Shown piece after piece: positions 92 to 43,771 of a stretch of DNA of 64,000 nucleotides (position 1 is the first letter of the stretch; every line of letters begins with the position of its first letter). Below the pieces are notes generated by a model, which was not told the origin of the DNA, did no database searches, and was given only the letters and a program-made list of their open reading frames with translations. Source of the stretch: an uncultured Gammaproteobacteria bacterium (GTDB taxonomy: Bacteria > Patescibacteriota > Patescibacteriia > Patescibacteriales > UBA12465); the NCBI GenBank assembly GCA_964483295.1, contig CAZAAD010000002.1, forward strand, positions 936 to 64,935, written 5' to 3'. A program made the position numbers and the translations under genes.

Positions 92-123
92 AGGCAAGTC
101 GGCGGCGTGTCCTCGGCTTGCCT
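92..123 (+). promoter_or_regulatory. rpsB-tsf intergenic hairpin without a U-tract (possible attenuator or processing stem)
   Basis: aggcaagtcg (92-101) pairs with cggcttgcct (114-123), giving 10 bp with one G.U and a 12-nt loop. No T-run follows. Confidence 0.3.
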
Positions 124-134
124 AGTTTAACAAT

Positions 135-929
135 ATGGAACTAATCAAAAAATTACGCGACTTAACTGGCGCTGGCATGGTTGATTGTCAGAAAGCTTTA
201 AAGGAAGCGGAAAATGATTTAGATAAAGCAGTAGAAATTTTGCGCAAGAAAGGTATTGCCAAGGCTGCTAAGCGCACTGACCGCGAAACTAACGAAGGCG
301 TAGTTAAGGTGGCAGTTAATGCTGACGGTACTGAAGGCTATGTTTTGGAATTAAATTCAGAAACTGATTTTGTTTCCCGTAATGAAAAATTCCAAGCCTT
401 TGCCGAACAAGTTTTAAATTTAGTTAAAGAAAATAGACCCGCTGACTTAGAAGCTTTACTCACTTTACCAATGGAAGGCTCAACTGTGGCTGACGCTTTA
501 AATAATTTGAGCGGTACGATTGGTGAAAAGATGGGCATTAAGCGTTTTGCTATTATCAAAGGCGACAGCGTAGCAGCTTATTCTCATTTAGGCGGACGCA
601 TGGGCGTTTTAGTGGCTTTAGACCAAGCCGGTAAGACAGAGATTGCCACTGATGTTGCGATGCAGGTAGCGGCTGCTAATCCGAAGTATATTATTCCGGC
701 TGAAGTTTCTGCTGAAGAAATGAATAAAGAAAAGGAAATTTATAAGGAACAGCTTTTGAAGGAAGGTAAGCCTGAGGCAATGGTAGAAAAAATTGTTGAA
801 GGTAAGATGGGTAAGTATTACTCTGAAGTTTGTTTAATGGAGCAGGAGTTTATTAAAGATGATAAGAAAAAAGTTAAAGAAGTTTTAGGTGGCGCTAACG
901 TAACTGAATTTGTTAGATATTCTCTTTAA
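135..929 (+). CDS. tsf: translation elongation factor Ts
   Basis: N-terminal UBA-like motif IKKLRDLTGAGMVDCQKALKEA, followed by KKGIAKAAKR and the EF-Ts core (AAANP, EQEFIKD). Located downstream of rpsB. Confidence 0.95.
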   Translation: MELIKKLRDLTGAGMVDCQKALKEAENDLDKAVEILRKKGIAKAAKRTDRETNEGVVKVAVNADGTEGYVLELNSETDFVSRNEKFQAFAEQVLNLVKENRPADLEALLTLPMEGSTVADALNNLSGTIGEKMGIKRFAIIKGDSVAAYSHLGGRMGVLVALDQAGKTEIATDVAMQVAAANPKYIIPAEVSAEEMNKEKEIYKEQLLKEGKPEAMVEKIVEGKMGKYYSEVCLMEQEFIKDDKKKVKEVLGGANVTEFVRYSL

Positions 930-956
930 GATAAGCTTGGCTATATATCCAACATT

Positions 957-1904
957 ATGAGGATAGTCCAAGTTCAATTTGCTCCTTGGGATAAGGCTTA
1001 TGATTTTTTGAATCCTGACTTAGATTTGGTGTCTGGCGACTACGTCGTTGTTGATACTGAATTAGGTCGGGAATTAGGAAAAGTTGTTGCCTGTCCAGCT
1101 GAGAGCAAACAAAATAATGCAGAAATAAAGCCGGTTTTAAGAGTGGCGACTTTTGAAGATATCGCTCGAATGGCTGATCATGCCAAGAAAGATGAAGCTT
1201 TAACTTATTGCCGTGAAGCCGTAGAAAAGTTTGCTTTACCGATGAAGTTAGTTGATGTGCATTTTTCTTTTGAAGGGAATCGCATGAACTTTGCTTTTAT
1301 TGCTGACGGCCGGGTTGATTTTCGTGAATTAGTGAAGGAATTAGCCGCTCGTTTTGGTGCCAATATCCGTTTAACTCAAATTGGTACGCGCGATGAGGCC
1401 AGAATTACTGGTGATTGCGGGCCTTGTGGGCGCAAGCTTTGTTGCCAAGGTTTCTTGTGTGAATTTTCTTCAATTACCTCAGAGATGGCCGAAGCTCAGC
1501 AAGTAGTGCACCGCGGTTCAGAAAGGATTTCTGGTATGTGCGGTCGCTTGATGTGTTGTTTAGCTTTTGAATATGAGGGTTATAAAGAAATGGCTGGTAA
1601 ATTACCGCCTATAGGAACTAAGGTTAATATTGATGGTGTTAGAGGCATGGTTTGTGGACATCATATTTTAAAACAAACCATAGATGTTAAAATTCCTCCC
1701 GAAAGACCGGACGAAATAGAAGTAACGATTGAAGTTGATATTAACCGTCGTGAGCGCCAGAAGAAAGAACAGGAGAAACGGGCGCAAGTAGATTTTACTG
1801 ACCCATTTACCACTACTACTGGTAGCAGTCACGCGCCTCGGGAAGAAGCGCAAAAAAATAATCGTTCTTATAATCGCTCTCGCGGTCGTCGCCGCAAGCG
1901 CTAA
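957..1904 (+). CDS. ricT: PSP1 domain protein (YaaT/RicT-like) with an Arg-rich C-terminal tail
   Basis: PSP1-type N-terminus (VQVQF...YDF) and a Cys-rich core GDCGPCGRKLCC...GMCGRLMCCLAFE. The tail is RSYNRSRGRRRKR. Confidence 0.8.
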   Translation: MRIVQVQFAPWDKAYDFLNPDLDLVSGDYVVVDTELGRELGKVVACPAESKQNNAEIKPVLRVATFEDIARMADHAKKDEALTYCREAVEKFALPMKLVDVHFSFEGNRMNFAFIADGRVDFRELVKELAARFGANIRLTQIGTRDEARITGDCGPCGRKLCCQGFLCEFSSITSEMAEAQQVVHRGSERISGMCGRLMCCLAFEYEGYKEMAGKLPPIGTKVNIDGVRGMVCGHHILKQTIDVKIPPERPDEIEVTIEVDINRRERQKKEQEKRAQVDFTDPFTTTTGSSHAPREEAQKNNRSYNRSRGRRRKR

Positions 1905-1910
1905 AATTAA

Positions 1911-1949
1911 ATCACCCTTTTTGCCACTGGCAGAGAGGGTGATTTTTTT
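1911..1949 (+). terminator. rho-independent terminator after the PSP1 gene
   Basis: tcaccct (1912-1918) pairs with agggtga (1936-1942), followed by TTTTTTT. Confidence 0.6.
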
Positions 1950-1975
1950 GTGATGATAGATAAATATGCTATAAT
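1948..1975 (+). promoter_or_regulatory. sigma70-like promoter for gap
   Basis: TTGTGA (1948-1953), 16-nt spacer, TATAAT (1970-1975), 40 nt before the ATG. Confidence 0.4.
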
Positions 1976-2014
1976 ATCTTTAAATAATAATTAATTTTTT
2001 ATTGATAAAAAAGT

Positions 2015-3031
2015 ATGTCTAAGATTAACATTGCTATTAATGGTTTTGGCCGTATCGGCCGGGCGGCTTATAAAGTGATTATTGATAATTTTCCTAATAT
2101 GAACGTCGTGGCGGTTAACGATTTAGCTGAGCCGGCTACTTTAGCACATTTATTAGAGTTTGATTCTTGTTATGGTCGCTACCATCATAAAGTTAGCGCT
2201 ACTAAAGATTCTATTATCGTTGGTAAGTCAAAAACGCCAGTTTTATCTATTAAAGACCCAAGTCAGTTGCCTTGGGCCAAGCTTAAGGTTGATGTCGTTT
2301 TAGAATGTACTGGCAAGTTTCGTTCTAAAGAAGATTTGGTGATGCATTTAGCGGCGGGTGCGAAAAAAGTTATCTTATCTGCTCCGGCTAAAAAAGGTGG
2401 GATTAAAACTATTGTTTTAGGGGTTAATGAAAATAAAGTTACCAAGACCGATCATATTGTTTCCTGTGCTTCCTGTACAACTAACTGTTTAGCACCGGCC
2501 ACAGCTGTTATTAAGCAGAACTTTGGTATTAAGAAAGCCTTAATGACAACCATTCATTCCTATACCGCTGACCAAAATTTAGTTGATGGGCCGCATAAAG
2601 ATTTGCGCCGAGCACGGGCCGCTGCTTTAAATATTGTCCCTACAACTACTGGAGCAGCCGTAGCGACAACAGAAGCAATTCCTTCTTTGCATGATAATTT
2701 TGATGGTTTAGCTGTACGTGTTCCGACGCCGGTTGGTTCACTATGTGATACGGTTTATGTTCTTGGCAAGAAGACAACTGCCGAAACTGTAAACAAAGCT
2801 TTTAAAAAAGCCGCTAGCGGTAAATTAAAAGGCATCATTGAAGCCTCAGAAGAAGAATTAGTTTCTTCAGATATTATTGGTAATCCTCATAGCGCGATTA
2901 TTGATTTGCTTTCAACTAAAGTCGTCGGCGGCGACTTGCTTAAAGTTATTTCTTGGTACGACAATGAGTGGGGTTATTCTAATCGCATGGTTGAGCTCGC
3001 CGCTTATTTAGCCAAAATGATTAAGCGTTAA
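2015..3031 (+). CDS. gap: glyceraldehyde-3-phosphate dehydrogenase
   Basis: NGFGRIGR NAD-binding motif, catalytic SCTTNCLAP, and C-terminal WYDNEWGYS. Confidence 0.95.
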   Translation: MSKINIAINGFGRIGRAAYKVIIDNFPNMNVVAVNDLAEPATLAHLLEFDSCYGRYHHKVSATKDSIIVGKSKTPVLSIKDPSQLPWAKLKVDVVLECTGKFRSKEDLVMHLAAGAKKVILSAPAKKGGIKTIVLGVNENKVTKTDHIVSCASCTTNCLAPATAVIKQNFGIKKALMTTIHSYTADQNLVDGPHKDLRRARAAALNIVPTTTGAAVATTEAIPSLHDNFDGLAVRVPTPVGSLCDTVYVLGKKTTAETVNKAFKKAASGKLKGIIEASEEELVSSDIIGNPHSAIIDLLSTKVVGGDLLKVISWYDNEWGYSNRMVELAAYLAKMIKR

Positions 3032-3052
3032 TAAATTAATAATTTTAAAAAT

Positions 3053-3790
3053 ATGAGATTAAATAATAAAGTCGCGGTTGTGACCGGAGCTGCTTCTGGC
3101 ATTGGTAAGGCGGCGGCTGATTTATTCGTTGCTGAAGGCGCCAAGGTTGTCTATTCCGATATCCATGAGGCACCAGCTGGCTTAGAATTGGCCCCTGGTA
3201 AAGCGATTTACGTTCGTTGCGATGTTTCCAAGCGGGAAGAGGTGGCCGCTCTAGTAGCCGCTGCTGTGGCCGAATTTGGCACTTTAGATGTGATGGTAAA
3301 TAACGCCGGGGTTGGTACTTTGGGCAGTATTTTAGATGTTAGCGAAGAGGTCTGGAATAAAACTATCCAAGTAAATTTACACGGTGTTTTTTATGGCTCA
3401 CAGTTAGCCGCTCAAGTGATGAAAGAAAAAGGCGTTAAGGGTTCAATTATTAATATTAGTTCTATTTTAGGAACGGTTGGCATGGCGGCGACGGTTTCTT
3501 ACTGTGCCTCTAAAGGAGGCGTTGTGCAGCTAACTCATGCCGCTGCCTTAGACTTAGCTCCGCACGGCATTCGGATTAATGCGGTTGCGCCTGGTTTTAT
3601 TGTTACTGGTATGACCGAAGGAGTTTTAGGTGATGATGGTTTTAATCAAATGGTTAAAGCCAACACCCCCTTGGGTTATGTTGGTGAATCAGCTGATATT
3701 GCTAATGCTTTGTTATATTTAGCTAGTGACGAAGCAAAATATGTTACCGGCACGGTTCTGCACGTTGATGGCGGCTGGACAGCTCGGTAA
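3053..3790 (+). CDS. short-chain dehydrogenase/reductase (SDR) family oxidoreductase
   Basis: TGAASGIGKA cofactor motif, NNAG, and catalytic S...YCASK. Length 245 aa. Substrate cannot be called. Confidence 0.85.
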   Translation: MRLNNKVAVVTGAASGIGKAAADLFVAEGAKVVYSDIHEAPAGLELAPGKAIYVRCDVSKREEVAALVAAAVAEFGTLDVMVNNAGVGTLGSILDVSEEVWNKTIQVNLHGVFYGSQLAAQVMKEKGVKGSIINISSILGTVGMAATVSYCASKGGVVQLTHAAALDLAPHGIRINAVAPGFIVTGMTEGVLGDDGFNQMVKANTPLGYVGESADIANALLYLASDEAKYVTGTVLHVDGGWTAR

Positions 3791-3801
3791 GCAACAATAA
3801 A

Positions 3802-4836
3802 ATGCCTAAGCAAGCCGACATTATTACTAAACTGGAGTTTGCGGGATTAACTGGTCGCGGTGGCGCCGGTTTTCCGGTAGCTAAGAAATGGTTAGCCGTT
3901 AAACAGGCTTTAGGAAAGATTAAGAATGGCCGCGGTTATATTATTATTAACGCCGCCGAAGGTGAACCAGGTGTCAAAAAAGATGCTTGGCTTTTAGAAC
4001 ATGAGGCGGAAGAAGTTTTGCGTGGCGTAAAATTAGCTTTAGATTTTTTAGGAAAAGATAAGATTGTTAAAGTTTATCTTTATTGGAGCAAAGCTTATCA
4101 AGTAGCTTTTAGTAAACAAATGGAAGTAGCTTTAGCACTTAAACAATATCGGAGCTTAAAAAATAAGTTAGAATTTTTTCTGAAGCCGAAAGAGCCGTCT
4201 TATATTTGTGGTGAAGAAAGTACGATTTTAAATGTTATTGAAGGCAAGCGTCCTGAGCCACGTTTGCGTCCGCCTTTTCCGGCCGACCATGGCTTATTTG
4301 GTGCTCCGACTTTAGTTAGTAATGTTGAGACTTTTTATAGTGTTAGTTTAGTGGAACGCGATAAATATACCGGTCGCCGTCTTTATACTTTAGCTGGGGC
4401 GGTTAAGCAGCGTGGCGTTTTTGCTTTACCAGCAGAAATGAGTATTGAAGAAGTTTTACGGGCGACTAATAATTATCCAGCCTTTGATTTTTTTGTCATT
4501 GCTGGGGGCGAAGTTTGCGGCGAAGTTTTACGTTCCGATCAGTTATCCGCTCCGGTTGAAGGTTCTGGTTTAATTATGGTTTATGATGTGAAGAAAACCG
4601 ATAAGAAAAAACTTTTAGATTATTGGTTAAAGTTTTATGAGAATGAAAGTTGTGGTGCCTGCACGGCTTGTCGGGAGGGGAGTTATCGCTTACGCGAATT
4701 ATTTTTAGCTAAAAAAATAGATAGCGCGTTGTTTGCGGATTTGTTAGATAACTTAGAAGAATCAAGTTTATGCTCACTGGGCTCATCTTTACCTTTAACA
4801 GTGAAAAGTTTTTTAGAAAATATTTATCATAAGTAA
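3802..4836 (+). CDS. NuoF/HydB-like NAD(P)H-binding iron-sulfur protein, short and divergent
   Basis: GRGGAGFPVAKKW, YICGEES, ESCGACTACREG plus LCSLG (the N3-type 4Fe-4S cysteines). At 344 aa it is shorter than typical NuoF, and the Gly-rich FMN loop before YICGEE reads KEPS. Confidence 0.75.
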   Translation: MPKQADIITKLEFAGLTGRGGAGFPVAKKWLAVKQALGKIKNGRGYIIINAAEGEPGVKKDAWLLEHEAEEVLRGVKLALDFLGKDKIVKVYLYWSKAYQVAFSKQMEVALALKQYRSLKNKLEFFLKPKEPSYICGEESTILNVIEGKRPEPRLRPPFPADHGLFGAPTLVSNVETFYSVSLVERDKYTGRRLYTLAGAVKQRGVFALPAEMSIEEVLRATNNYPAFDFFVIAGGEVCGEVLRSDQLSAPVEGSGLIMVYDVKKTDKKKLLDYWLKFYENESCGACTACREGSYRLRELFLAKKIDSALFADLLDNLEESSLCSLGSSLPLTVKSFLENIYHK

Positions 4837-4840
4837 AACT

Positions 4841-5593
4841 ATGGAAAACAAAAAATTAACTCCGGTCTTTACTATACTGGAAAACTCGGTGTCTCTTTGG
4901 TGGCAACACTTAGTCAAGATTTTAAAACTTTATTGGGAAGGCATTAAGCCAATCCTGATTCCGTTAGTCGTAACGACTGTTTCAATCGTTCTGGGATTTT
5001 TAATAACTGATCGCTTTGTTTCTAACCTGTTTAAGACTTTGGCGGGAGTATCTGGGTTTGTGAGCGTAATTTTTATGGTATATTTTTTGACCAGAGGATA
5101 TATGGCGATTTTCTTTTTGGTTAAGAATGACTATAAGGATGCACCAAAAGAGACTTATCGTGAGACTAAACCTTTGTTTTGGCCTTATATCGGTTTATCT
5201 TTGCTTACTGGGTTATTGATTTTTTTGTGGGCGTTATTATTAATTATTCCGGCTATTATTTTTTCAGTGTTTTATAGTTTAGCCGTTTATGTTTTATTTT
5301 TTGAAGGCAAAAGGGGAATGAGTGCAATTTCTCGAAGCAAGGCTTTAGTTAAGGGTTATTTCTGGCCAGTTTTTGGTCGCTTTTGTTTTTTAATGTTAGT
5401 TGTTTGGTTGCTCATGATTCTACTTATGGCGCCAATTGCCGGTGTGCCCGAAACTAGCGCCTGGTCAATGATTTGGAGCGGAATCATTCAGATTATTAGT
5501 TGGCTGATTTCCCCGATTGCTTTATTTTTCTCGTATAGTATTTATTCGGATTTAGTAAAAATCAAAGATGCTCAACCTCAGATTAAACAATAA
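4841..5593 (+). CDS. polytopic membrane protein of unknown function
   Basis: About 6 hydrophobic segments. Its 3' end overlaps the hydrogenase start by 26 nt. No recognisable motif. Confidence 0.6.
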   Translation: MENKKLTPVFTILENSVSLWWQHLVKILKLYWEGIKPILIPLVVTTVSIVLGFLITDRFVSNLFKTLAGVSGFVSVIFMVYFLTRGYMAIFFLVKNDYKDAPKETYRETKPLFWPYIGLSLLTGLLIFLWALLLIIPAIIFSVFYSLAVYVLFFEGKRGMSAISRSKALVKGYFWPVFGRFCFLMLVVWLLMILLMAPIAGVPETSAWSMIWSGIIQIISWLISPIALFFSYSIYSDLVKIKDAQPQIKQ

Positions 5594-7271
5594 AAAAATT
5601 ACTGCTAGACCTGGGCAGACAATTTTAGATGTAGCTACAGAGCGGGGAATAAAAATCCCTTCTTTGTGTCATCATCCTGATTTAGATGTGCGCGCCAGTT
5701 GTCGCGTCTGTGTGGTAGAAATAAAAGGGCGTGATAAATTAGCGACAGCCTGCTCGACTAAGGTTACTGAGGGCATGGAAATTTTAACTGATTCGCCGCG
5801 CGTCAGAAAAGCACGCCAGCTGAATATTGAATTAATTTTTGCTTCCCATATTGAAAAGTGTGCCGACTGTACTTTGCGTTTTAATTGCGACTTACTTCAG
5901 CTCGCTAGGGACTATGATATTAAGATTACGCGCTTTAATGATAGAAAGAGTAAGCGTAAGACTTATAAATTTGCTAATGCTGTTGAGATAGACGGAACGC
6001 AGTGCATTGATTGTCATAATTGTATTACCGCTTGTAGTCGTCAGGGAATTAATTTTTTAGAAATGGAGGGGCATGGTGTTAATCAAGAAGTCAAAGCTAC
6101 TAGGGCTAAGGGCCAAGCTTGTATTTATTGCGGGCAATGTGCTAATGCTTGTCCGGTGGCCGCCGCGCAAGAACAAGGCGAATGGAAACAGGTTGAAGCT
6201 GCTTTAAAGGATAAAAAGAAAATTGTTGTTGCTCAGTTTGCGCCCGCGGTACGCGTTTCCTTAGGAGAAGAATTTGGTTTGCCTTATGGATTTAATTGCG
6301 CTAAGAAAATAAATACCGCTCTGCATAAATTAGGTTTTGCTTATATTTTTGATGTTAATTTCGGGGCCGACATTACAACAATGACGGAGGCGGAGGAATT
6401 AGTAGAACGCTTAGGCGATAAAAAAGCTGCTGCTCCGATGTTTACCTCTTGCTGTCCGGCTTGGGTCGCTTATGTTGAGCATTATCATCCGGAATTGATT
6501 CCTAATTTAACGTCAGCCCGCTCACCCCATATTCATAGTGCCGGAGCAATTAAAAGTTATTTTGCTAGTAAGCATAAGTTGAATGGTAAAAAAATTGTGG
6601 TTGTTTCTATTATGCCGTGTACGGCTAAAAAATATGAAGCTGCCCGTCCCGAGTTAAAGTATCAAGGTCATCAGTTAGTTAATCACGTTTTGACAACGCG
6701 TGAGTTTGCTTTTTTATTGAAGAAAAATAATATTGATTTAAAGAACTTGCCTGATTCAGAAACTAATCCCTTCTTTAATGATGGTTCTGGTGCCGCCGCA
6801 ATTTATGGTGCTTCTGGTGGTGTAATGGAATCAGCTCTACGCACCGCTGTCTCTCTGGCTTGCGCCAAGACTAAATCAAAAAACAAGCTGTGTGCTAGTC
6901 GTTTAGAGTTTAAAGAAGTTCGCGGGCTGAAGGGGCTGAAAGAAGCCAAGGTTAATTTAGCGGGTCGCCAACTGAAAGTCGGTGTAGTTAATGGAATTGG
7001 CAATATTGAGCGCATCTTGCCAAAACTGCATGAATACCAGTATATTGAAGTGATGGCTTGTCCAGGCGGCTGTTTAGGCGGCGGTGGACAACCAATGCCG
7101 ACAACTAAGGCTATTCGGGAACAGCGTTTAGCAGGGATGTATATGATTGATGCCGGTAAGCCAGTCAGACGGGCTCATGAAAACAAGCCGATGACTGAAT
7201 ATTATTCTTGGGTGAAGCAGAATAAGCTGGCTGCTAAGTTGCTCCACACTAAATTTTCTCCTAAAAAATGA
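5568..7271 (+). CDS. hydA: [FeFe]-hydrogenase catalytic subunit (2Fe-2S, His-ligated 4Fe-4S, 2x 4Fe-4S and H-cluster domains)
   Basis: N-terminal 2Fe-2S ferredoxin fold (CHHPDL...CRVCVVE), HIEKCADCTLRFNC, and two CxxCxxCxxxCP motifs. H-cluster motifs TSCCPAW, MPCTAKKYE and EVMACPGGCLGGGGQP are present. Confidence 0.92.
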   Translation: MLNLRLNNKKITARPGQTILDVATERGIKIPSLCHHPDLDVRASCRVCVVEIKGRDKLATACSTKVTEGMEILTDSPRVRKARQLNIELIFASHIEKCADCTLRFNCDLLQLARDYDIKITRFNDRKSKRKTYKFANAVEIDGTQCIDCHNCITACSRQGINFLEMEGHGVNQEVKATRAKGQACIYCGQCANACPVAAAQEQGEWKQVEAALKDKKKIVVAQFAPAVRVSLGEEFGLPYGFNCAKKINTALHKLGFAYIFDVNFGADITTMTEAEELVERLGDKKAAAPMFTSCCPAWVAYVEHYHPELIPNLTSARSPHIHSAGAIKSYFASKHKLNGKKIVVVSIMPCTAKKYEAARPELKYQGHQLVNHVLTTREFAFLLKKNNIDLKNLPDSETNPFFNDGSGAAAIYGASGGVMESALRTAVSLACAKTKSKNKLCASRLEFKEVRGLKGLKEAKVNLAGRQLKVGVVNGIGNIERILPKLHEYQYIEVMACPGGCLGGGGQPMPTTKAIREQRLAGMYMIDAGKPVRRAHENKPMTEYYSWVKQNKLAAKLLHTKFSPKK

Positions 7272-30471: not shown

Positions 30472-32946
30472 TTGCTTATGCCAGCTTTTGCATCCCTTAG
30501 TTTTGCGAGCATTCTGCCGTACTTACTGGGCGCCATTATTCTACTAGTGGCCGTCTTTTTTATTTTACGCACCATAAAATCATTTCTTTCCCGGAGACAT
30601 TATGCGCCTCATCATGTTTTTTCTATCCGCATTCCCAAGGAAAGACCAGATGATAATAATAACGCCAATCATTCCGTACAAAGCATAAAAGAAGAGATTG
30701 CTAAAGGTGAGGCAATTTTTGCCGGCTTGGGCGGCTTGCGTGCTCAACGTGGTTTTTCAGCTTGGCTAAGTGGCCGTAATGATCATGTTTCTTTTGAAAT
30801 TGTCGCTAGCGCTAAGCAGATTGCTTTTTATTTTGCGGCCCAGCGCGAAGCAGTACGCTACCTAGAACAACACATTCATGCCCATTACCCAGAGGCGGTT
30901 ATTGAAGAAATTGAGGACTATAATTGTTTTGGGGCAACTGGACAAATTTCCGCCGCTTATTTAAAAACAGTGAAAAGTTTTATTTTTCCCCTTAAGACTT
31001 ATCAGGAAATGGAAGTTGACCCGATGAATTCCTTGGTTAGTGTTTTATCTAAATTAGAAAAAGGGGAGAGCTTAGCTATTCAATATTTAGTGCGCAGCGC
31101 TAAAGGTTCTTGGCATCGCACAGTTAGAGAGGTGGTGGAGCGAATACAGCAGAAAAATTCCGTGGCCGAGGGGACGCGTTCTGGTTTTTTAGATTCAGTT
31201 TTTTCTTTTGTTTCTCCAACCAAGAAAAAAGATCCTAATCAAGAAGATAAAAAAGAAAAACGTTTAAGCGCTGTTGAGGAGGAAATGTTAAAAAAGATTG
31301 AAGAAAAAAATCTGAAGGCTGGACTTGATGTGAACTTGCGTGTACTCAGTTTTGCTCCGACAAAAGCTAAGGCAGATATGTACTTGGAAAATATTGCTAG
31401 TGCTTTTGCGGAATATAATAATTTTAGCTACGGCAATTCTTTTTCTCGTCCTAAGAAGGGTAGTCAAGATAAAATTATTAAAGATTTTATTTATCGCTAT
31501 TTTCGGGAAAGCGATAGCTTTTTGTTAAATAGTGAAGAATTGGCTGGTATTTTTCATTTGCCGCTTAGCACGACCGAAACCCCTAATATTTTGTGGCTAA
31601 CTGCTAAATCAGCCCCTGCGCCAGCTGAAGTGCCTGATGAAGGCATACTTTTAGGAAACAATGTTTATCGCGGTGTAAAGAAAGATATTAGAATAAAACG
31701 AGCTGATAGAAGGCGACATACCTATATCATTGGTAAATCAGGTGTTGGTAAATCCGTCTTGCTTGCAAACATGGCGATTCAGGATATTCAAAACGGTGAA
31801 GGTGTGTGTGTTTTAGATCCGCATGGTGATTTGATTCAGGATATTTTAGAGCGCATCCCGCCAGAAAGAGCTGAAGATGTTATTATTTTTTCGCCAGCTG
31901 ATATTGAGCGTCCTTTGGCTTTGAATTTATTAGAATTTGATGAGCGTTATCCAGAGCAAAAAAGTTTTGTCATTAATGAAATGATTGGCATCTTTGATAA
32001 ATTGTATGACCTAAAGGCAACGGGTGGACCGATGTTTGAGCAGTATATGCGTAACGCGATGCTGTTAATCATGGATGACCCAGAATCAGGTTCTACCTTA
32101 ATGGAAATACCAAAAGTTTTAGCTGATGAAAAATTCCGTCGCTTGAAAGTGGAGCGTTGTCGCAATAAAACCGTGGTTGATTTTTGGACTAATGAAGCAG
32201 AGAAGGCTGGTGGCGAAGCCGCTTTAGCCAATATCGTGCCCTATATAACCTCCAAGTTAACCTCTTTCATTTCTAATGACATGATGCGCCCGATTATTGG
32301 TCAGCAAAAGAGCGCCTTTAATTTGCGTGAAGTGATGGATAAGCAAAAAATATTATTAGTTGACTTACCGAAGGGAACAGTGGGTGAAGCTAATGCTTAT
32401 CTGCTCGGCATGATTTTAGTAGGAAAAATTTTAATGGCGGCGCTGTCTCGTACCGATATGCCGACTGAGCAGCGTAAAGATTTTTATCTTTATATTGATG
32501 AGTTTCAAAATTTTACCACTAATTCTATTTGTCAGATTTTATCGGAAGCTAGAAAATATGCTTTGAATTTAGTGATTGCCCATCAGTATATTGGTCAGTT
32601 AGCCAAAAATGGCAACACGGAAATTAAGGATGCGGTTTTTGGCAACGTGGGCACAATGGTTAGTTTTAAAATTGGCTCTGAAGATGCGGATTTTCTGGTC
32701 AAAGAATTTAACCCGGTTTTCAATCAGTATGATTTGATAAACATTGACAAGGGAACTGCTTATATTAAACTGCTAATTGATAACAGTGCGGCTCGCCCCT
32801 TTTCTTTACGAACTACCTGGCCTTTGGTTGGGGTTAAGCATGAGGGCATTGCTGATAAAATTAGGTCGCTTTCCCGTTTAAAATACGGGCAGAGCGTGCG
32901 TTTAGTTGAAGCGGAAATTGCTCGCCGCAGCGAAATAAAAAAATAA
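30472..32946 (+). CDS. membrane-anchored P-loop NTPase of the TraD/VirD4 (type IV coupling protein)/HerA-like kind, with a ~400-aa uncharacterised N-terminal domain
   Basis: N-terminal TM helix, Walker A IIGKSGVGKS followed by VLDPHGDL, and Walker B-like YLYIDEFQNF. ATG at 30478 is an alternative to TTG at 30472. Confidence 0.65.
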   Translation: MLMPAFASLSFASILPYLLGAIILLVAVFFILRTIKSFLSRRHYAPHHVFSIRIPKERPDDNNNANHSVQSIKEEIAKGEAIFAGLGGLRAQRGFSAWLSGRNDHVSFEIVASAKQIAFYFAAQREAVRYLEQHIHAHYPEAVIEEIEDYNCFGATGQISAAYLKTVKSFIFPLKTYQEMEVDPMNSLVSVLSKLEKGESLAIQYLVRSAKGSWHRTVREVVERIQQKNSVAEGTRSGFLDSVFSFVSPTKKKDPNQEDKKEKRLSAVEEEMLKKIEEKNLKAGLDVNLRVLSFAPTKAKADMYLENIASAFAEYNNFSYGNSFSRPKKGSQDKIIKDFIYRYFRESDSFLLNSEELAGIFHLPLSTTETPNILWLTAKSAPAPAEVPDEGILLGNNVYRGVKKDIRIKRADRRRHTYIIGKSGVGKSVLLANMAIQDIQNGEGVCVLDPHGDLIQDILERIPPERAEDVIIFSPADIERPLALNLLEFDERYPEQKSFVINEMIGIFDKLYDLKATGGPMFEQYMRNAMLLIMDDPESGSTLMEIPKVLADEKFRRLKVERCRNKTVVDFWTNEAEKAGGEAALANIVPYITSKLTSFISNDMMRPIIGQQKSAFNLREVMDKQKILLVDLPKGTVGEANAYLLGMILVGKILMAALSRTDMPTEQRKDFYLYIDEFQNFTTNSICQILSEARKYALNLVIAHQYIGQLAKNGNTEIKDAVFGNVGTMVSFKIGSEDADFLVKEFNPVFNQYDLINIDKGTAYIKLLIDNSAARPFSLRTTWPLVGVKHEGIADKIRSLSRLKYGQSVRLVEAEIARRSEIKK

Positions 32947-40149: not shown

Positions 40150-40998
40150 ATGAGTAAATGGACCGTTAAAAGAAAAATTAAAAAAGACTATCAAGCCAAA
40201 GATTTAAAGAATCCTTTTTTTCGACAGAAGCAAACAGCTAACAAGAGTAAGCGTTTGCGTCGTTGGCCTTTTATTGCAGTTCCAGCTTTGATAGGAATTT
40301 TAGCTTGGTTCTTTTGGGCCGCCCCAATATGGCAGCTAAAAACCATTGATATCCAAGGCTTAACTAGAATAGACAAAGCCGAGCTAGAAAATATTGCTAG
40401 AAGCAGGGAAGCTAATTCCCGTTGGTTATTCTTTAAAGAAAGTAATATCTTTTTATTTCAAGAAAAGGAATTGTACAGCGAAATAATAGATAAATATAAT
40501 TTCGCTCAACTAGAAATTAGAAAACTACTACCGAATAAGTTGGAGATTAAAATTAGTGAGCGCCCCTACGCTTTTATTTTTCAACAGGGAAGCGAGTATA
40601 ATTATGCTTCAGGTGATGGTTATATAATTAAAGAGGTGCCGGTATCAGAAGAAGATAAAGGGAAGTATTTTATTTTGGAAAATAAAAGTCAGGTTGTGTC
40701 TGTTGGTAATAAAAATAAATTAAGCTTGAAACAGGAATACTTAGATTTTTTCTTTGCTCTGAGTGGTAAGTTAGCAGAACATGCTGACCTGCCCGTTGAA
40801 CGCTTTATTATTGACCAAGAACTCAACTCTTTAACTGTTAAATTTAAAGATGGACCCGCTGCCCTGTTTAATGTGAAAAATGGTGCCGGGGAACAGGTCG
40901 CTGATTTAGCTCTTGTCAAAAAAGAAAAAATAAGGGATAATTTCAGTAAGACTAATTATATTGATCTGCGCTACGGCAATCGGATTTTTATAAATTAA
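40150..40998 (+). CDS. ftsQ: FtsQ/DivIB-like cell division protein (TM plus POTRA)
   Basis: Basic N-terminus, a single TM, then IDIQGLTRIDKAELENI (POTRA-like). Confidence 0.7.
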   Translation: MSKWTVKRKIKKDYQAKDLKNPFFRQKQTANKSKRLRRWPFIAVPALIGILAWFFWAAPIWQLKTIDIQGLTRIDKAELENIARSREANSRWLFFKESNIFLFQEKELYSEIIDKYNFAQLEIRKLLPNKLEIKISERPYAFIFQQGSEYNYASGDGYIIKEVPVSEEDKGKYFILENKSQVVSVGNKNKLSLKQEYLDFFFALSGKLAEHADLPVERFIIDQELNSLTVKFKDGPAALFNVKNGAGEQVADLALVKKEKIRDNFSKTNYIDLRYGNRIFIN

Positions 40999-41006
40999 AC
41001 TACCTT

Positions 41007-41150
41007 ATGGAAGGACTATTTAAATTTTTATTTGGATTAGCCATCTTTGTTTACGGCTTAGTATCTGCCGGCATCTTCCTAATAATTATTAAAATTATCC
41101 TAATGTTTAATCCTGAAGTCAGATTCATGGGCCTTACATTCACTTATTAA
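41007..41150 (+). CDS. possible 47-aa hydrophobic peptide
   Basis: My own translation is MEGLFKFLFGLAIFVYGLVSAGIFLIIIKIILMFNPEVRFMGLTFTY*. It lies 8 nt after ftsQ. No further support. Confidence 0.3.
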   Translation: MEGLFKFLFGLAIFVYGLVSAGIFLIIIKIILMFNPEVRFMGLTFTY

Positions 41151-41335
41151 GTTTTTTTATAAGATAAAAGGTACTGGAGTTCGTCTTTGGTTGAAAGTTT
41201 AAAGGTAGTTCTTTTTTAACAATTGTTTTCATTTTTTCATGGATTGTTTTTTGGTTATACTGATTGATTGATGATTGATTATGCGTTTCTTTGTTCATGT
41301 TTTCTTTGTATTTGTTCTGATTTTCTCTAGTACCC

Positions 41336-41367
41336 GGGGGTTGCGTTAAAACAACCCCCATTTTTTT
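41336..41367 (+). terminator. strong rho-independent terminator
   Basis: gggggttg / caaccccc stem (8 bp) with an 8-nt loop, followed by T7. Confidence 0.7.
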
Positions 41368-41377
41368 ATCTTACTAT

Positions 41378-41405
41378 ACGTGTATTAATATACATTATGC
41401 GAAGT
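41378..41405 (-). other. dif: dif-like Xer recombination site
   Basis: The minus strand reads ACTTCGCATAATGTATATTAATACACGT. The 16-nt run CGCATAATGTATATTA is identical to E. coli dif (GGTGCGCATAATGTATATTATGTTAAAT), including the central TGTATA. The right arm diverges. Confidence 0.5.
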
Positions 41406-41418
41406 ATTGTTATGCGAA
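41395..41418 (+). repeat. direct repeat of the dif left-arm 9-mer TTATGCGAA, spaced by 6 nt
   Basis: ttatgcgaa (41395-41403), gtattg, ttatgcgaa (41410-41418). Confidence 0.8.
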
Positions 41419-41526
41419 AAATAAGGGCTTTTTGCGCTATTCTCCTTGTCACCCTTTAGTTATAACTGCTATAATAAGGATGTCTTATAACTCTCCCCTG
41501 TTAGTTTAAATAATTTTTTCTTATAA

Positions 41527-42489
41527 ATGATGTCTACTAAGCCTATTATAAAATATTTATCAGATTTCCTAGATTTCTGTGAAATAGAAAAAGGACTTTC
41601 TGTCAAGACCCAGGAGAACTACACTCGTTTCTTAAAAAAGTTCTTTGTCTGGCTAGAAGAGGTAAAGCTTACTTCCCTGACGCCTGAAGCTTTAACGCCT
41701 GACCATATCTGGAAATATAAAGTTTTTTTATCACGTCGAGTTGATCCTCGGACCAAAAAAACTTTAAAAAAAATAACCCAGAACTCATACTTAATTGCCT
41801 TGCGTTCGCTTTTAGAATTTTTTGTGGAAAAAGACATTGCTTCCCTGCCGCCCTCAAAAATTAAATTAGCTAAAGATAAGGGTGATAAAGAAATAAAATT
41901 TTTAAAACTTGAACAATTATCACGCCTAATGTCGGCGCCTGACACGGCCACTATTATTGGTTTGCGTGATCAAGCTCTCCTGGAGACCTTATTTTCTACT
42001 GGCTTGCGCGTGGCTGAGCTCGCCGCCTTAAATCGTGATCAGGTTAAAATAAAAGATGGGATGGAAGATTTGGAAATTGCCGTGGTCGGTAAAGGTGCCA
42101 AGATTAGAACGGTATATTTCTCTAAGCGGGCCGTAGAAGCTCTGCGCGACTATTTAAACAAGCGCCAGGACTTAGACGAAGCTTTGTTTATTAATTATCG
42201 CCGTGGCGCCGGTAAAAGCCTAGGTAATGATTCACGCCGTTTAACCGTTAAAAGCATTGAAGATATTGTTAAAAAATATGTTCTCATTGCCGGTCTGCCG
42301 GTAATGGCAACACCTCACACTTTGCGTCATTCATTTGCCACGGACTTACTTAATCAGGGTGTTGATTTAAGGACGGTTCAAGAATTTTTAGGCCATAGTA
42401 ATATTGCCACCACCCAGATATATACCCATGTCACTAATAAGCAATTACGAGATATCCATCGACAGGTTCACGACAAACGCAAGTTTTAA
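41527..42489 (+). CDS. xerC: tyrosine site-specific recombinase, XerC/XerD family
   Basis: N-terminal SAM-like core-binding domain. The catalytic residues are in context: ...GLRVAEL..., HTLRHSFAT, GHSNIATTQIYTHV. XerC and XerD cannot be distinguished from sequence alone. Confidence 0.88.
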   Translation: MMSTKPIIKYLSDFLDFCEIEKGLSVKTQENYTRFLKKFFVWLEEVKLTSLTPEALTPDHIWKYKVFLSRRVDPRTKKTLKKITQNSYLIALRSLLEFFVEKDIASLPPSKIKLAKDKGDKEIKFLKLEQLSRLMSAPDTATIIGLRDQALLETLFSTGLRVAELAALNRDQVKIKDGMEDLEIAVVGKGAKIRTVYFSKRAVEALRDYLNKRQDLDEALFINYRRGAGKSLGNDSRRLTVKSIEDIVKKYVLIAGLPVMATPHTLRHSFATDLLNQGVDLRTVQEFLGHSNIATTQIYTHVTNKQLRDIHRQVHDKRKF

Positions 42490-42517
42490 AAAAAGCCCCA
42501 AGTCGGGGCTTTTTTTA
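42490..42517. terminator. bidirectional terminator between xer and the M23 peptidase gene
   Basis: agcccc / ggggct stem with loop aagtc, flanked by A7 and T6. Confidence 0.65.
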
Positions 42518-42541
42518 ATAATATTTAATCAAGAGATTTGT

Positions 42542-43771
42542 TTATGGTAGGTAGTTAGCCGGATTGACCGGTAGGCCGTTTTTTCTGACTTCAAAATGTA
42601 AATGCGGGCCGCTAGAGAAGCTTCCGGAGCCAGGTGTGCCCGGTGTGCCGCCAGTTTTACCAATTACTTCCCCTCTAGTAACATATTGATCAACTTCCAC
42701 GTAAGCGGCTGATACGTGCCCGTAAACAGTGGCTAAATTATCACCATGAATAATCATGATATAAGCATAAGCCTTGGACCCATCAGATTTAACCTTAGCA
42801 ACGTAGCCGTCAGCGGCTGCATATAAGGTTGAGCCTTGAGCGGCACGGATATCAACTCCAGAGTGTTCACCAATAATCTTGCGATAAGGATAATCAGGAT
42901 CATGGAAAGTAGCCGTAATATAATTCTTCTTTACCGGCCAACCGATAGTACTATCGCCGCTCTCTAACCGCTGTTTATCTTTTTCCGACATCTTCTTTCT
43001 AATCAAATTTTCCGCGCCCGCAATTTCTGCCTGAGCTTGATTTTGTTCCGCTTTAGCGCGTGCTAGTAAAGCCTGGAATTCTTTTTCTGAAGATTTTGTT
43101 TCCTCTAAGACAGCAGCTTTTTGGTCCTGTTCATAGACTAAACCATCCTTTTTTTCTTCTAGTTTTTTCTTCATCTCCTCCATCTCCGCACTTTTATCAG
43201 CGAGTAAACCCTTATTCTTAGCTAACTGGTCTTTTTGTTTTTTTAGTTCCTTTACTCCTTCGCCAATGCGATTATTAGTATCACCTAGATATTTCACTTG
43301 ACTTAAAAAGTCGAACAAAGAGTCGTTAAGTAGCAAAGCTTCGAGTGTAGTAGTCTGTTCTTGGCGGTACATAATCTGCAAGAGGTGCGAAATATGTTCT
43401 TTTTGAGCTTCAATTTTTTTATCAAGATTCGTACTATCAACTTCTATTTTTCTAATTTCTAAGGCAGTTTTATCAATTTCTAATTCAACTTCTTCAATGT
43501 CTAAGGCAATTTTACCTAGCCTGTTTTCAATAATTGCTAACTGATTGTTAAGACTAACCTGCTCATTACGTTTAGCGGCAATTTGTGATTGATATTCTTT
43601 TTGGCGGGCCTGTAAACTTTCAATTTGCTTCTTTTGCAACTGGATTTTAAGATTTAAAGCTTCAATTTCTTGATCAATATCAACATTAAGAGCCGCTCCA
43701 GACTGATTCCTGGCGGCTAGTATTACTATAAATATAATTAATAGGGCTAATGACTTGAAAATTTTTCTCAT
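42542..43771 (-). CDS. M23 family metallopeptidase with a long N-terminal coiled coil (EnvC-like)
   Basis: Signal/anchor, about 250 aa of heptad-rich sequence, then the M23 motifs HSGVDI and GPHLHFEV. Confidence 0.88.
   Translation of the reverse strand: MRKIFKSLALLIIFIVILAARNQSGAALNVDIDQEIEALNLKIQLQKKQIESLQARQKEYQSQIAAKRNEQVSLNNQLAIIENRLGKIALDIEEVELEIDKTALEIRKIEVDSTNLDKKIEAQKEHISHLLQIMYRQEQTTTLEALLLNDSLFDFLSQVKYLGDTNNRIGEGVKELKKQKDQLAKNKGLLADKSAEMEEMKKKLEEKKDGLVYEQDQKAAVLEETKSSEKEFQALLARAKAEQNQAQAEIAGAENLIRKKMSEKDKQRLESGDSTIGWPVKKNYITATFHDPDYPYRKIIGEHSGVDIRAAQGSTLYAAADGYVAKVKSDGSKAYAYIMIIHGDNLATVYGHVSAAYVEVDQYVTRGEVIGKTGGTPGTPGSGSFSSGPHLHFEVRKNGLPVNPANYLP

Follow-up and report, generated by a model that had tools for sequence, protein, structure and literature searches.

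Where a single gene for an XerC/XerD-like tyrosine recombinase (xer) lies directly beside a 28-bp sequence resembling the dif sites of Escherichia coli and Bacillus subtilis, is that sequence the chromosomal dif site, and does the neighbouring recombinase act on it alone? The question is raised by positions 41378–41405 of contig stretch CAZAAD010000002.1 as analysed here, a stretch of 64,000 nucleotides that we call the window. We conclude that the 28-mer is very probably the chromosomal dif site of Candidatus Falkowbacteria (Patescibacteria, within the candidate phyla radiation, CPR), placed at the terminus between the terminator of the alr–ftsQ gene string and the promoter of xer. This reading upholds the first-pass annotation of a dif-like Xer site and is supported by four independent lines of evidence, namely conservation, terminus position, a polar word and natural recombinants, all of them computational. 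The site and the gene beside it are laid out as follows.

41378–41405, minus strand: predicted 28-bp dif site, present in a single copy in the window and kept in relatives; prophage junctions of L005 and L057 map a crossover in TGTATATTAA
41405–41395, minus strand: strong (left) arm, ACTTCGCATAA
41394–41389, minus strand: central hexamer, TGTATA
41388–41378, minus strand: weak (right) arm, TTAATACACGT
41527–42489, plus strand: xer, whose 320-aa product is an XerC/XerD-like tyrosine recombinase and presumably acts on the site

Read back from the window, the minus strand of 41378–41405 is ACTTCGCATAATGTATATTAATACACGT, exactly as first reported, and its 28 bp fall into two 11-bp arms around a 6-bp centre (11 + 6 + 11). 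From the end of the site to the ATG of the 320-aa recombinase gene there are 121 nt, where about 120 had been given, and the claim that this is the only tyrosine recombinase gene here is borne out by tblastn, which found no second one in the 64-kb window. Two likenesses to known sites had also been proposed, and both hold against the reference sequences for E. coli and B. subtilis dif printed in Kono et al. 2011 (PMC3025954). The 16-mer CGCATAATGTATATTA, which includes the centre TGTATA, recurs without a mismatch in E. coli dif (GGTGCGCATAATGTATATTATGTTAAAT), and the ACTTC with which the site starts is also the start of B. subtilis dif (ACTTCCTAGAATATATATTATGTAAACT). The chance expectation originally given for the exact 16-base match, 3e-5, is right for a uniform base composition but becomes about 1e-4, by our own arithmetic, at the window's G+C content of about 39%. 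With up to three mismatches the 16-mer is expected 1.05 times by chance and is not significant alone, so it is the exact match together with the wider context that bears the argument. The full 28-mer occurs once in the window even when three mismatches are allowed, and none of 100 shuffles contained a match.

The recombinase itself has the Pfam domains Phage_integrase and SAM-like N, and its best relative of solved structure is E. coli XerD (1a0p), with XerH (5jjv) distant at 48.5 bits. The catalytic R (in TGLRVAEL), K (in GKGAKIR), H-x-x-R (in PHTLRHSFAT), H and Y (in LGHSNIATTQIYTHV) all align with those of XerD. Against the NCBIfam models it reaches 223.9 bits as XerC (TIGR02224, cut-off 335.15) and 218.5 bits as XerD (TIGR02225, cut-off 329.6), in both cases below the equivalog threshold; XerA (NF040815) is the fourth-best family at 187.7 bits against a cut-off of 220, and the XerS model gives 116 bits against a cut-off of 267. 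Orthologues at about 80% identity number in the hundreds and are labelled Patescibacteria or Candidatus Falkowbacteria.

For the relatives, a scan of one genome per species gave 80 loci of 13 kb each with an orthologous xer in the same slot (66–95% protein identity); because the loci are homologous, motif counts across them are not independent. The site lies upstream of xer, in the same orientation and in the slot between ftsQ and xer, in about 75 of the 80 genomes, and most of the loci that lack it begin too close to xer. In a logo of 75 sites, positions 1–15 (ACTTCGCATAATGTA) are invariant or nearly so (74 of 75 at position 5, 71 of 75 at position 13), and positions 18–21 (TTAA) and 25 (A) are invariant. 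The remaining right arm is variable, and variation at positions 16–17 gives the centres TGTATA, TGTAGA, TATAGA or TGTAGG. Information content is about 2 bits at positions 1–15, 18–21 and 25 and about 0–1 bit a few bases outside, and the flanks of the site are otherwise unalignable among relatives. Conservation this sharp and confined to the site argues for the footprint of a protein-recognised DNA site and not for an RNA or coding element.

Gene order around the site is constant throughout the clade, running from a hypothetical gene through alr, ftsQ, the site and xer to the convergently oriented genes for an M23 peptidase, a beta-lactamase-like protein (in brackets in our consensus order) and gltX; the module thus appears to be vertically inherited chromosome and not a mobile island. 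An exact metagenome scan for the 22-mer ACTTCGCATAATGTATATTAAT returned 100 stretches with one copy each, and in 100 of 100 that copy sits in the ftsQ–site–xer slot. The xer gene follows 48–2029 nt downstream of the site in 88 of these stretches; the other 12 end less than about 800 nt from the site (6 of them less than 400 nt) and are too short to include xer. Each related 13-kb locus likewise has one site, prophage hybrids excepted. In two complete Falkowbacteria chromosomes, of which the 13 kb around xer were covered, the site is at about 203.6 kb (CP066698.1) and about 84.9 kb (OW818634.1). The first-pass annotation had pointed out that dispersed copies of the site, or its absence upstream of xer in related genomes, would speak against a dif function, and neither was seen in the window, the 13-kb loci or the metagenome stretches.

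Replication polarity around the site

Features of the window that bear on its replication polarity are the following.

1–64000, no strand: terminus-type context; skew is positive and genes are mainly on the plus strand left of the site, skew is negative and genes are mainly on the minus strand right of it, and the word AGGGAAG changes strand at the site
40405, 40586 and 40659 (starts; span 40405–40665), plus strand: last three plus-strand copies of AGGGAAG, pointing to the site from the left
41678–41672 and 41846–41840 (span 41672–41846), minus strand: first two minus-strand copies of AGGGAAG, antisense inside xer and pointing to the site from the right
45934, 46092 and 51372, minus strand: further copies of AGGGAAG

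Over most of the first 40 kb of the window, GC skew lies between +0.10 and +0.19, with values of +0.03 to +0.07 at minus-strand genes, and about −0.04 to −0.10 to the right of the site. Cumulative GC skew, which had been proposed as a check, has its maximum in the window as a plateau at 41.0–43.0 kb that coincides with the site, the peak itself being at 42647, 1.3 kb away. Genes are mainly on the plus strand up to xer and mainly on the minus strand beyond it. Third-codon-position skew is positive even in the four minus-strand genes left of the site, and a two-factor regression returns an effect of side (0.056) besides that of gene strand (0.078), which indicates that part of the skew is linked to replication. 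In the relatives with enough flanking sequence (n = 62), skew is higher on the left than on the right in 58 and changes sign in 41, and a local cumulative maximum lies less than 100 nt from the site in 14.

An unbiased search of the related loci for strand-polar words ranked AGGGAAG, with the extended form CAGGGAAG, as the top skewed 7-mer. Left of the site in the window, AGGGAAG occurs seven times on the plus strand and never on the minus strand, and right of the site never on the plus strand and five times on the minus strand, i.e., 12 copies point toward the site and none away from it. The switch falls between 40659 and 41678. Across 77 relatives, there are 128 plus and 1 minus copies on the left and 4 plus and 194 minus copies on the right (322 toward, 5 away), with the highest density within 1.5 kb of the site. 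The two 500-nt bins immediately to the right in these relatives consist mostly of plus-strand xer and hold 74 copies on the minus strand and 1 on the plus strand. Since these minus-strand copies are antisense within plus-strand xer, the flip occurs at the 28-mer and not where xer and the M23 peptidase gene converge 1.1 kb further on.

One copy, at xer codons 105–107, is retained in 44 of the 80 orthologues. Codon 105 encodes T, A, S or P and yet stays xCT, serine is encoded by TCC in 53 of 80 and leucine by CTN in 74 of 80, and this choice of codons indicates constraint at the level of the DNA. We propose AGGGAAG as a candidate FtsK-orienting word of Falkowbacteria, one that an FtsK-type protein would recognise. 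Its polarity pattern is like that of the FtsK-orienting words of model bacteria, KOPS (FtsK-orienting polar sequences) and SRS (SpoIIIE recognition sequences); the E. coli KOPS itself, GGGNAGGG, has no occurrence in the window.

Prophage junctions within the site

In two related loci, L005 and L057, an insert of about 5 kb separates ftsQ from the site, and the inserts prove to be prophages located exactly inside the site. The window itself has no prophage. Each insert is flanked by two 28-mers in direct orientation, listed here with coordinates of the respective locus.

L005, 5861–5888, minus strand: attL, ACTTCGCATAA-TGTATA-TTAAGCGAAGT
L005, 812–839, minus strand: attR, GTGTTTAAAAG-TGTATA-TTAATACACCT
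L057, 5410–5437, minus strand: attL, ACTTCGCATAA-TGTATA-TTATGCGAAGT
L057, 79–106, minus strand: attR, GGGTTTGAAAA-TGTATA-TTAATCCACGT

The L005 prophage (840–5860) carries Zot/pI, and the L057 prophage (107–5409) carries Zot together with a rolling-circle replication initiator (Rep; PF23343, phrog_3419); Zot/pI is of the morphogenesis ATPase type in both. Judged by these predicted genes, both inserts are filamentous (inovirus-like) prophages without an integrase. The sites that flank them are hybrids of a host arm, TGTATA and a phage arm, and if the host halves are joined, the products, ACTTCGCATAA-TGTATA-TTAATACACCT for L005 and the equivalent ending in TTAATCCACGT for L057, are intact sites of prophage-free relatives. 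The empty site of another relative, L023, aligns with the xer-side flank of L005 up to the site and with its ftsQ-side flank after it (alignment A1), and this places the crossover inside the shared TGTATATTAA. The Zot proteins of the two prophages are 44–45% identical, a divergence indicating that the insertions were independent events. Read in silico, the prophage junctions show that strand exchange occurs in nature within the site, and their arrangement is the signature of integrative elements exploiting Xer (IMEX).

From these junctions we infer an attP composed of a degenerate arm and the host's strong arm in inverted form, copied perfectly or nearly so. With arms of this kind, the site next to xer has two strong arms after integration and the one at the far end of the prophage two weak arms, an arrangement that would keep dimer resolution intact and disfavour excision. 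As for free relatives of the prophages, none of the 10 tested L005 and L057 open reading frames (ORFs) was matched in the 35 viral contigs described below, and a free attP form was not recovered among them. Inoviruses in CPR hosts were reported by Roux et al. 2019, whose text does not mention Xer; its ten matches to words starting with "dif" are apparently ordinary words such as "different."

A second scan of viral contigs, with TRTAKRTTAWGCGAAGTA, gave 35 contigs where about 20 are estimated to be expected by chance, and many of the 35 matches are dif-like sites of other hosts (e.g., ATTTAACATAA-TATATA-TTATGCGAAGT). Sites resembling that of Falkowbacteria are confined to L081, L086 and L101, with weaker resemblance in L084, L090, L091, L103 and L113. 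The first three are tailed-phage contigs that carry the full Falkowbacteria-type site with two strong arms, e.g., ACTTCGCATAA-TATAGG-TTAAGCGAAGT.

L081, 10844–10871, minus strand: tailed-phage site with two strong arms
L086, about 2791–2819: tailed-phage site with two strong arms
L101, about 1101–1129: tailed-phage site with two strong arms

All three encode a large terminase, with the site 0.1–2 kb from the terminase gene; SU10-like adaptor or portal matches occur in L081 and L086 and a D5-like primase in L081, and no tyrosine recombinase was seen in the examined stretches of the three. Tailed phages may rely on the host Xer either to integrate or to resolve dimers of their own genomes.

Rival readings and the neighbouring genes

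Several observations count against a terminus dif site served by the Xer next to it. The visible 64 kb make up about 7% of a genome estimated at about 1 Mb. GC skew is in part confounded with gene orientation, and in about a quarter of the relatives its sign stays the same out to 7 kb from the site. The proteins scanned, which came from 31 of the 52 window ORFs with 150 aa or more, included no FtsK; the ftsK gene is annotated in another CPR bacterium, TM7x (PMC10768705). The XerD residues reported to contact FtsK are RQ..QQ (review PMC5357621), and the corresponding segment is partly kept, reading LRDIHRQ in our Xer versus LRQLHQQ in XerD, a comparison that decides nothing about FtsK contact. 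Finally, the right arm of the window site mirrors the left at 6 of 11 positions, a poor symmetry that, as far as arm sequence goes, would also fit a second, different recombinase.

This last point bears on the main alternative, in which the 28-mer is the dif site of a classical XerC/XerD-type pair, the XerC-like neighbour binding ACTTCGCATAA and a paralogue encoded elsewhere binding TTAATACACGT. The left arm and centre differ little from the XerC side of E. coli dif, the right-arm positions A21, T22 and C26 are conserved in the lineage and yet not dyad-symmetric, and the neighbouring protein scores equally as XerC and as XerD. A dedicated partner would, however, be expected to keep the right arm constant, and that arm varies. 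Where conserved, its positions are largely dyad-symmetric with the left arm (TTA....A..T in the 75-site logo), which favours a single enzyme. Moreover, eight loci have native near-palindromic arms (TTAAGCGAAGT), at least three of which (L050, L074 and L079) have ftsQ adjoining the site with no insertion between, and the subclade with such arms has an orthologous Xer. Strong-strong hybrid sites are tolerated in the prophage-bearing loci, where the prophage-made site beside xer is evidently accepted by the cell as its sole intact site, and no second recombinase was found in the window or in any of the 13-kb loci.

The close association of gene and site, which form one module, can be argued in both directions. 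The first-pass annotation regarded a site adjacent to xer as typical of single-recombinase systems, and a gene-site module has indeed been called a possible hallmark of such systems (review PMC5357621), but in ordinary two-recombinase systems xerC also tends to lie near dif, with xerD near the origin (Kono et al. 2011, PMC3025954), which suits a pair of enzymes as well. Taking these points together, we lean toward the adjacent Xer acting alone as a single recombinase, and we regard a pair as a genuine but somewhat improbable alternative.

A reading in which a mobile element attaches here, with xer as that element's integrase and the site unrelated to dimer resolution, is very improbable. Integrases do often adjoin their att sites, and related sites are present on phage and prophage sequences, but xer and the site are surrounded by housekeeping genes whose order is constant across 80 species and 100 metagenome contigs, without cargo genes or a second boundary. 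The identity of Xer declines gradually over the 80 loci from 95% to 66%, the site coincides with the switch in skew and polar motif, and the prophages found within the site are insertions distinct from xer and have no integrase.

The remaining alternative involves features immediately next to the site, which are these.

40150–40998, plus strand: ftsQ-like gene, upstream of the site
41336–41369, plus strand: intrinsic-terminator-like hairpin and T run, closing the alr–ftsQ gene string just before the site
41410–41420, minus strand: TTTTCGCATAA, a further strong half-site in direct orientation, 4 nt beyond the left arm in the direction of xer
41446–41475, plus strand: promoter-like element for xer, TTGTCA-18 nt-TGnTATAAT, with 11/12 matches (a consensus match only)
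42486–42518, no strand: hairpin flanked on either side by A/T runs, where xer and the M23 peptidase gene converge

That the 28-mer is a mere transcriptional operator or promoter element of xer, coincidentally like dif, is hardly credible: it does lie 40 nt upstream of the promoter-like −35 element, and additional half-sites adjoin the beginning of xer in L062, L065 and L073 and one lies next to the window site, but a site-to-xer distance ranging from 48 to 2029 nt is unlike a fixed operator, a gene intervenes in some relatives (e.g., an acyltransferase-like ORF in L003), and the polar-motif switch and prophage hybrid junctions would be left unexplained.

The half-site copy at 41410–41420 is found in the closest relatives only, with the same arrangement in L001 and L002, and by its sequence may be an accessory or autoregulatory binding site for Xer. 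Orphan copies of the strong arm ACTTCGCATAA are located either in the interval from the site to the start codon of xer or right beside the site in L062 (3697, plus strand), L065 (1243, plus), L073 (5891, plus), L005 (5806, plus) and L036 (5932, minus); the one in L062 abuts a TATAAT box. Such orphan arms may be sites of Xer autoregulation or scars of past recombination. G-rich hairpins analogous to the one at 41336–41369 come after the site in many relatives. Segments of 0.6–2 kb separate the site from xer in some relatives and contain the L003 ORF just mentioned or a 161-aa ORF (L018); we considered them as mobile-element remnants and rejected this, as they are ordinary genes. Between ftsQ and the site, a 73-aa ORF at 41140–41361 (minus strand) is probably no gene, because it has no family match and the spacer is variable in relatives.

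Elsewhere in the window, there are housekeeping genes for seryl-, methionyl- and glutamyl-tRNA synthetases, DnaX, CTP synthase and IMP dehydrogenase, as well as for alanine racemase, the FtsQ-like protein and the M23 peptidase, the last on the minus strand and convergent with xer. An [FeFe]-hydrogenase large-subunit-like protein is encoded amid housekeeping genes at 5568–7271 (plus strand). The 824-aa protein encoded at 30472–32946 (plus strand) has coupling-protein domains of the VirD4/TrwB/TraG type; it was considered as FtsK and rejected as VirD4/TrwB-like, and it may be part of a type IV secretion or DNA-uptake machinery of the kind described for Patescibacteria (bioRxiv 10.1101/2025.01.22.634366). 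Rfam at gathering thresholds gave no structured-RNA match over the whole window, and ARAGORN found no tRNA or tmRNA in it. Many of the public assemblies that bear the locus, including L001, L002 and L004, are titled "uncultured Gammaproteobacteria bacterium," and one each "Bacillota" and "Planctomycetota"; these titles are probably taxonomic mislabels, since the synteny of Falkowbacteria is conserved in them.

With the 28-mer taken as a dif site on which the neighbouring Xer acts, the reaction can be pictured as follows. The site would lie in an untranscribed gap, with the alr–ftsQ terminator on one side and the xer promoter on the other. Protomers of Xer would bind both arms, ACTTCGCATAA, which is invariant and of high affinity, and the degenerate TTAATACACGT, and two sister sites would come together in synapsis. 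The conserved tyrosine is predicted to cleave at the borders of the 6-bp TGTATA, and two sequential pairs of strand exchanges via a Holliday junction would convert a chromosome dimer into monomers. The converging copies of (C)AGGGAAG suggest that they guide an FtsK-type translocase to the site, where it would license strand exchange when the cell divides, in which case recombination would depend on FtsK. The neighbouring Xer probably acts alone with a strong and a weak arm, in the manner of XerH/difH and XerS/difSL.

More broadly, and only tentatively, Falkowbacteria and perhaps many Patescibacteria may use one XerC/D-type recombinase on a canonical-looking 28-bp dif site, the two forming a terminus module that is steered by (C)AGGGAAG and hijacked by integrase-less filamentous, and possibly tailed, CPR phages. 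If true, this would be a further bacterial single-recombinase Xer system, distinct from XerS and XerH, and a ready-made handle for site-specific integration in organisms that are largely genetically intractable. A recombinase acting alone would, moreover, be a compact model of how strong and weak arms order strand exchange in an XerC/D-type enzyme. The prophage junctions suggest that Xer-exploiting integration operates in these ultra-small bacteria, and they define attB and attP sequences with potential use as tools for integration. As an exact terminus marker, the site could be combined with AGGGAAG as a word for replichore polarity, and both would help to check and close metagenome-assembled CPR/Patescibacteria chromosomes.

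Comparison with known systems

The type of system is well known, and a description of it for the Falkowbacteria lineage was not found in the literature searched: among the papers listed by full-text searches that combined CPR or Patescibacteria with dif or Xer, none linked the two. CPR genomes were not yet available at the time of the survey of Kono et al. 2011. That survey predicted dif in 16 phyla, past which the reach of Xer/dif would now be extended (PMC3025954).

The Falkowbacteria site is most readily compared with XerCD/dif, the system of E. coli and most bacteria. Both have 28 bp arranged as 11 + 6 + 11, with 16 consecutive bases and TGTATA identical to E. coli, both lie at the terminus or skew shift point with a G-rich polar word converging on the site, and the Xer studied here is closest to XerD and XerC, with an identical catalytic set. 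Zot-encoding filamentous prophages exploit the site as CTXphi-type elements exploit dif. Unlike in XerCD/dif, a single xer gene was seen (in the window and the 13-kb loci), immediately next to the site, the arm that corresponds to that of XerD is degenerate and varies, Xer falls under both the XerC and the XerD equivalog cut-offs, and the polar word is AGGGAAG instead of GGGNAGGG.

Among single-recombinase systems, XerS/difSL of streptococci and lactococci also joins the recombinase gene and the site in one module and has a strong left and a weak right half-site (PMC5357621). It differs in the length of difSL (31 bp, of which the centre takes up 11) and of XerS (356 aa), compared with 28 bp, a 6-bp centre and 320 aa here. 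XerH/difH of Helicobacter and Campylobacter similarly has a single recombinase encoded near its site and asymmetric arm affinity (PMC5357621), whereas XerH, at 354–362 aa, is only distantly similar to the 320-aa Xer and the difH arms, AGTTATGAAAA and AAAAGTTTGA, are unrelated in sequence. Archaeal XerA/dif shares with the present system one XerC/D-like recombinase and a conserved 28-bp site near the terminus (PMC5357621); XerA is described as FtsK-independent, whereas the Falkowbacteria site has a converging KOPS-like word.

Finally, the prophages of L005 and L057 resemble the IMEX CTXphi, VGJphi and TLCphi in being integrase-less filamentous prophages within the site, with hybrid junctions and a shared centre. 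They differ from these in having a CPR host and in a predicted attP whose strong arm is a perfect or near-perfect inverted copy of the host's, so that integration yields strong-strong and weak-weak sites.

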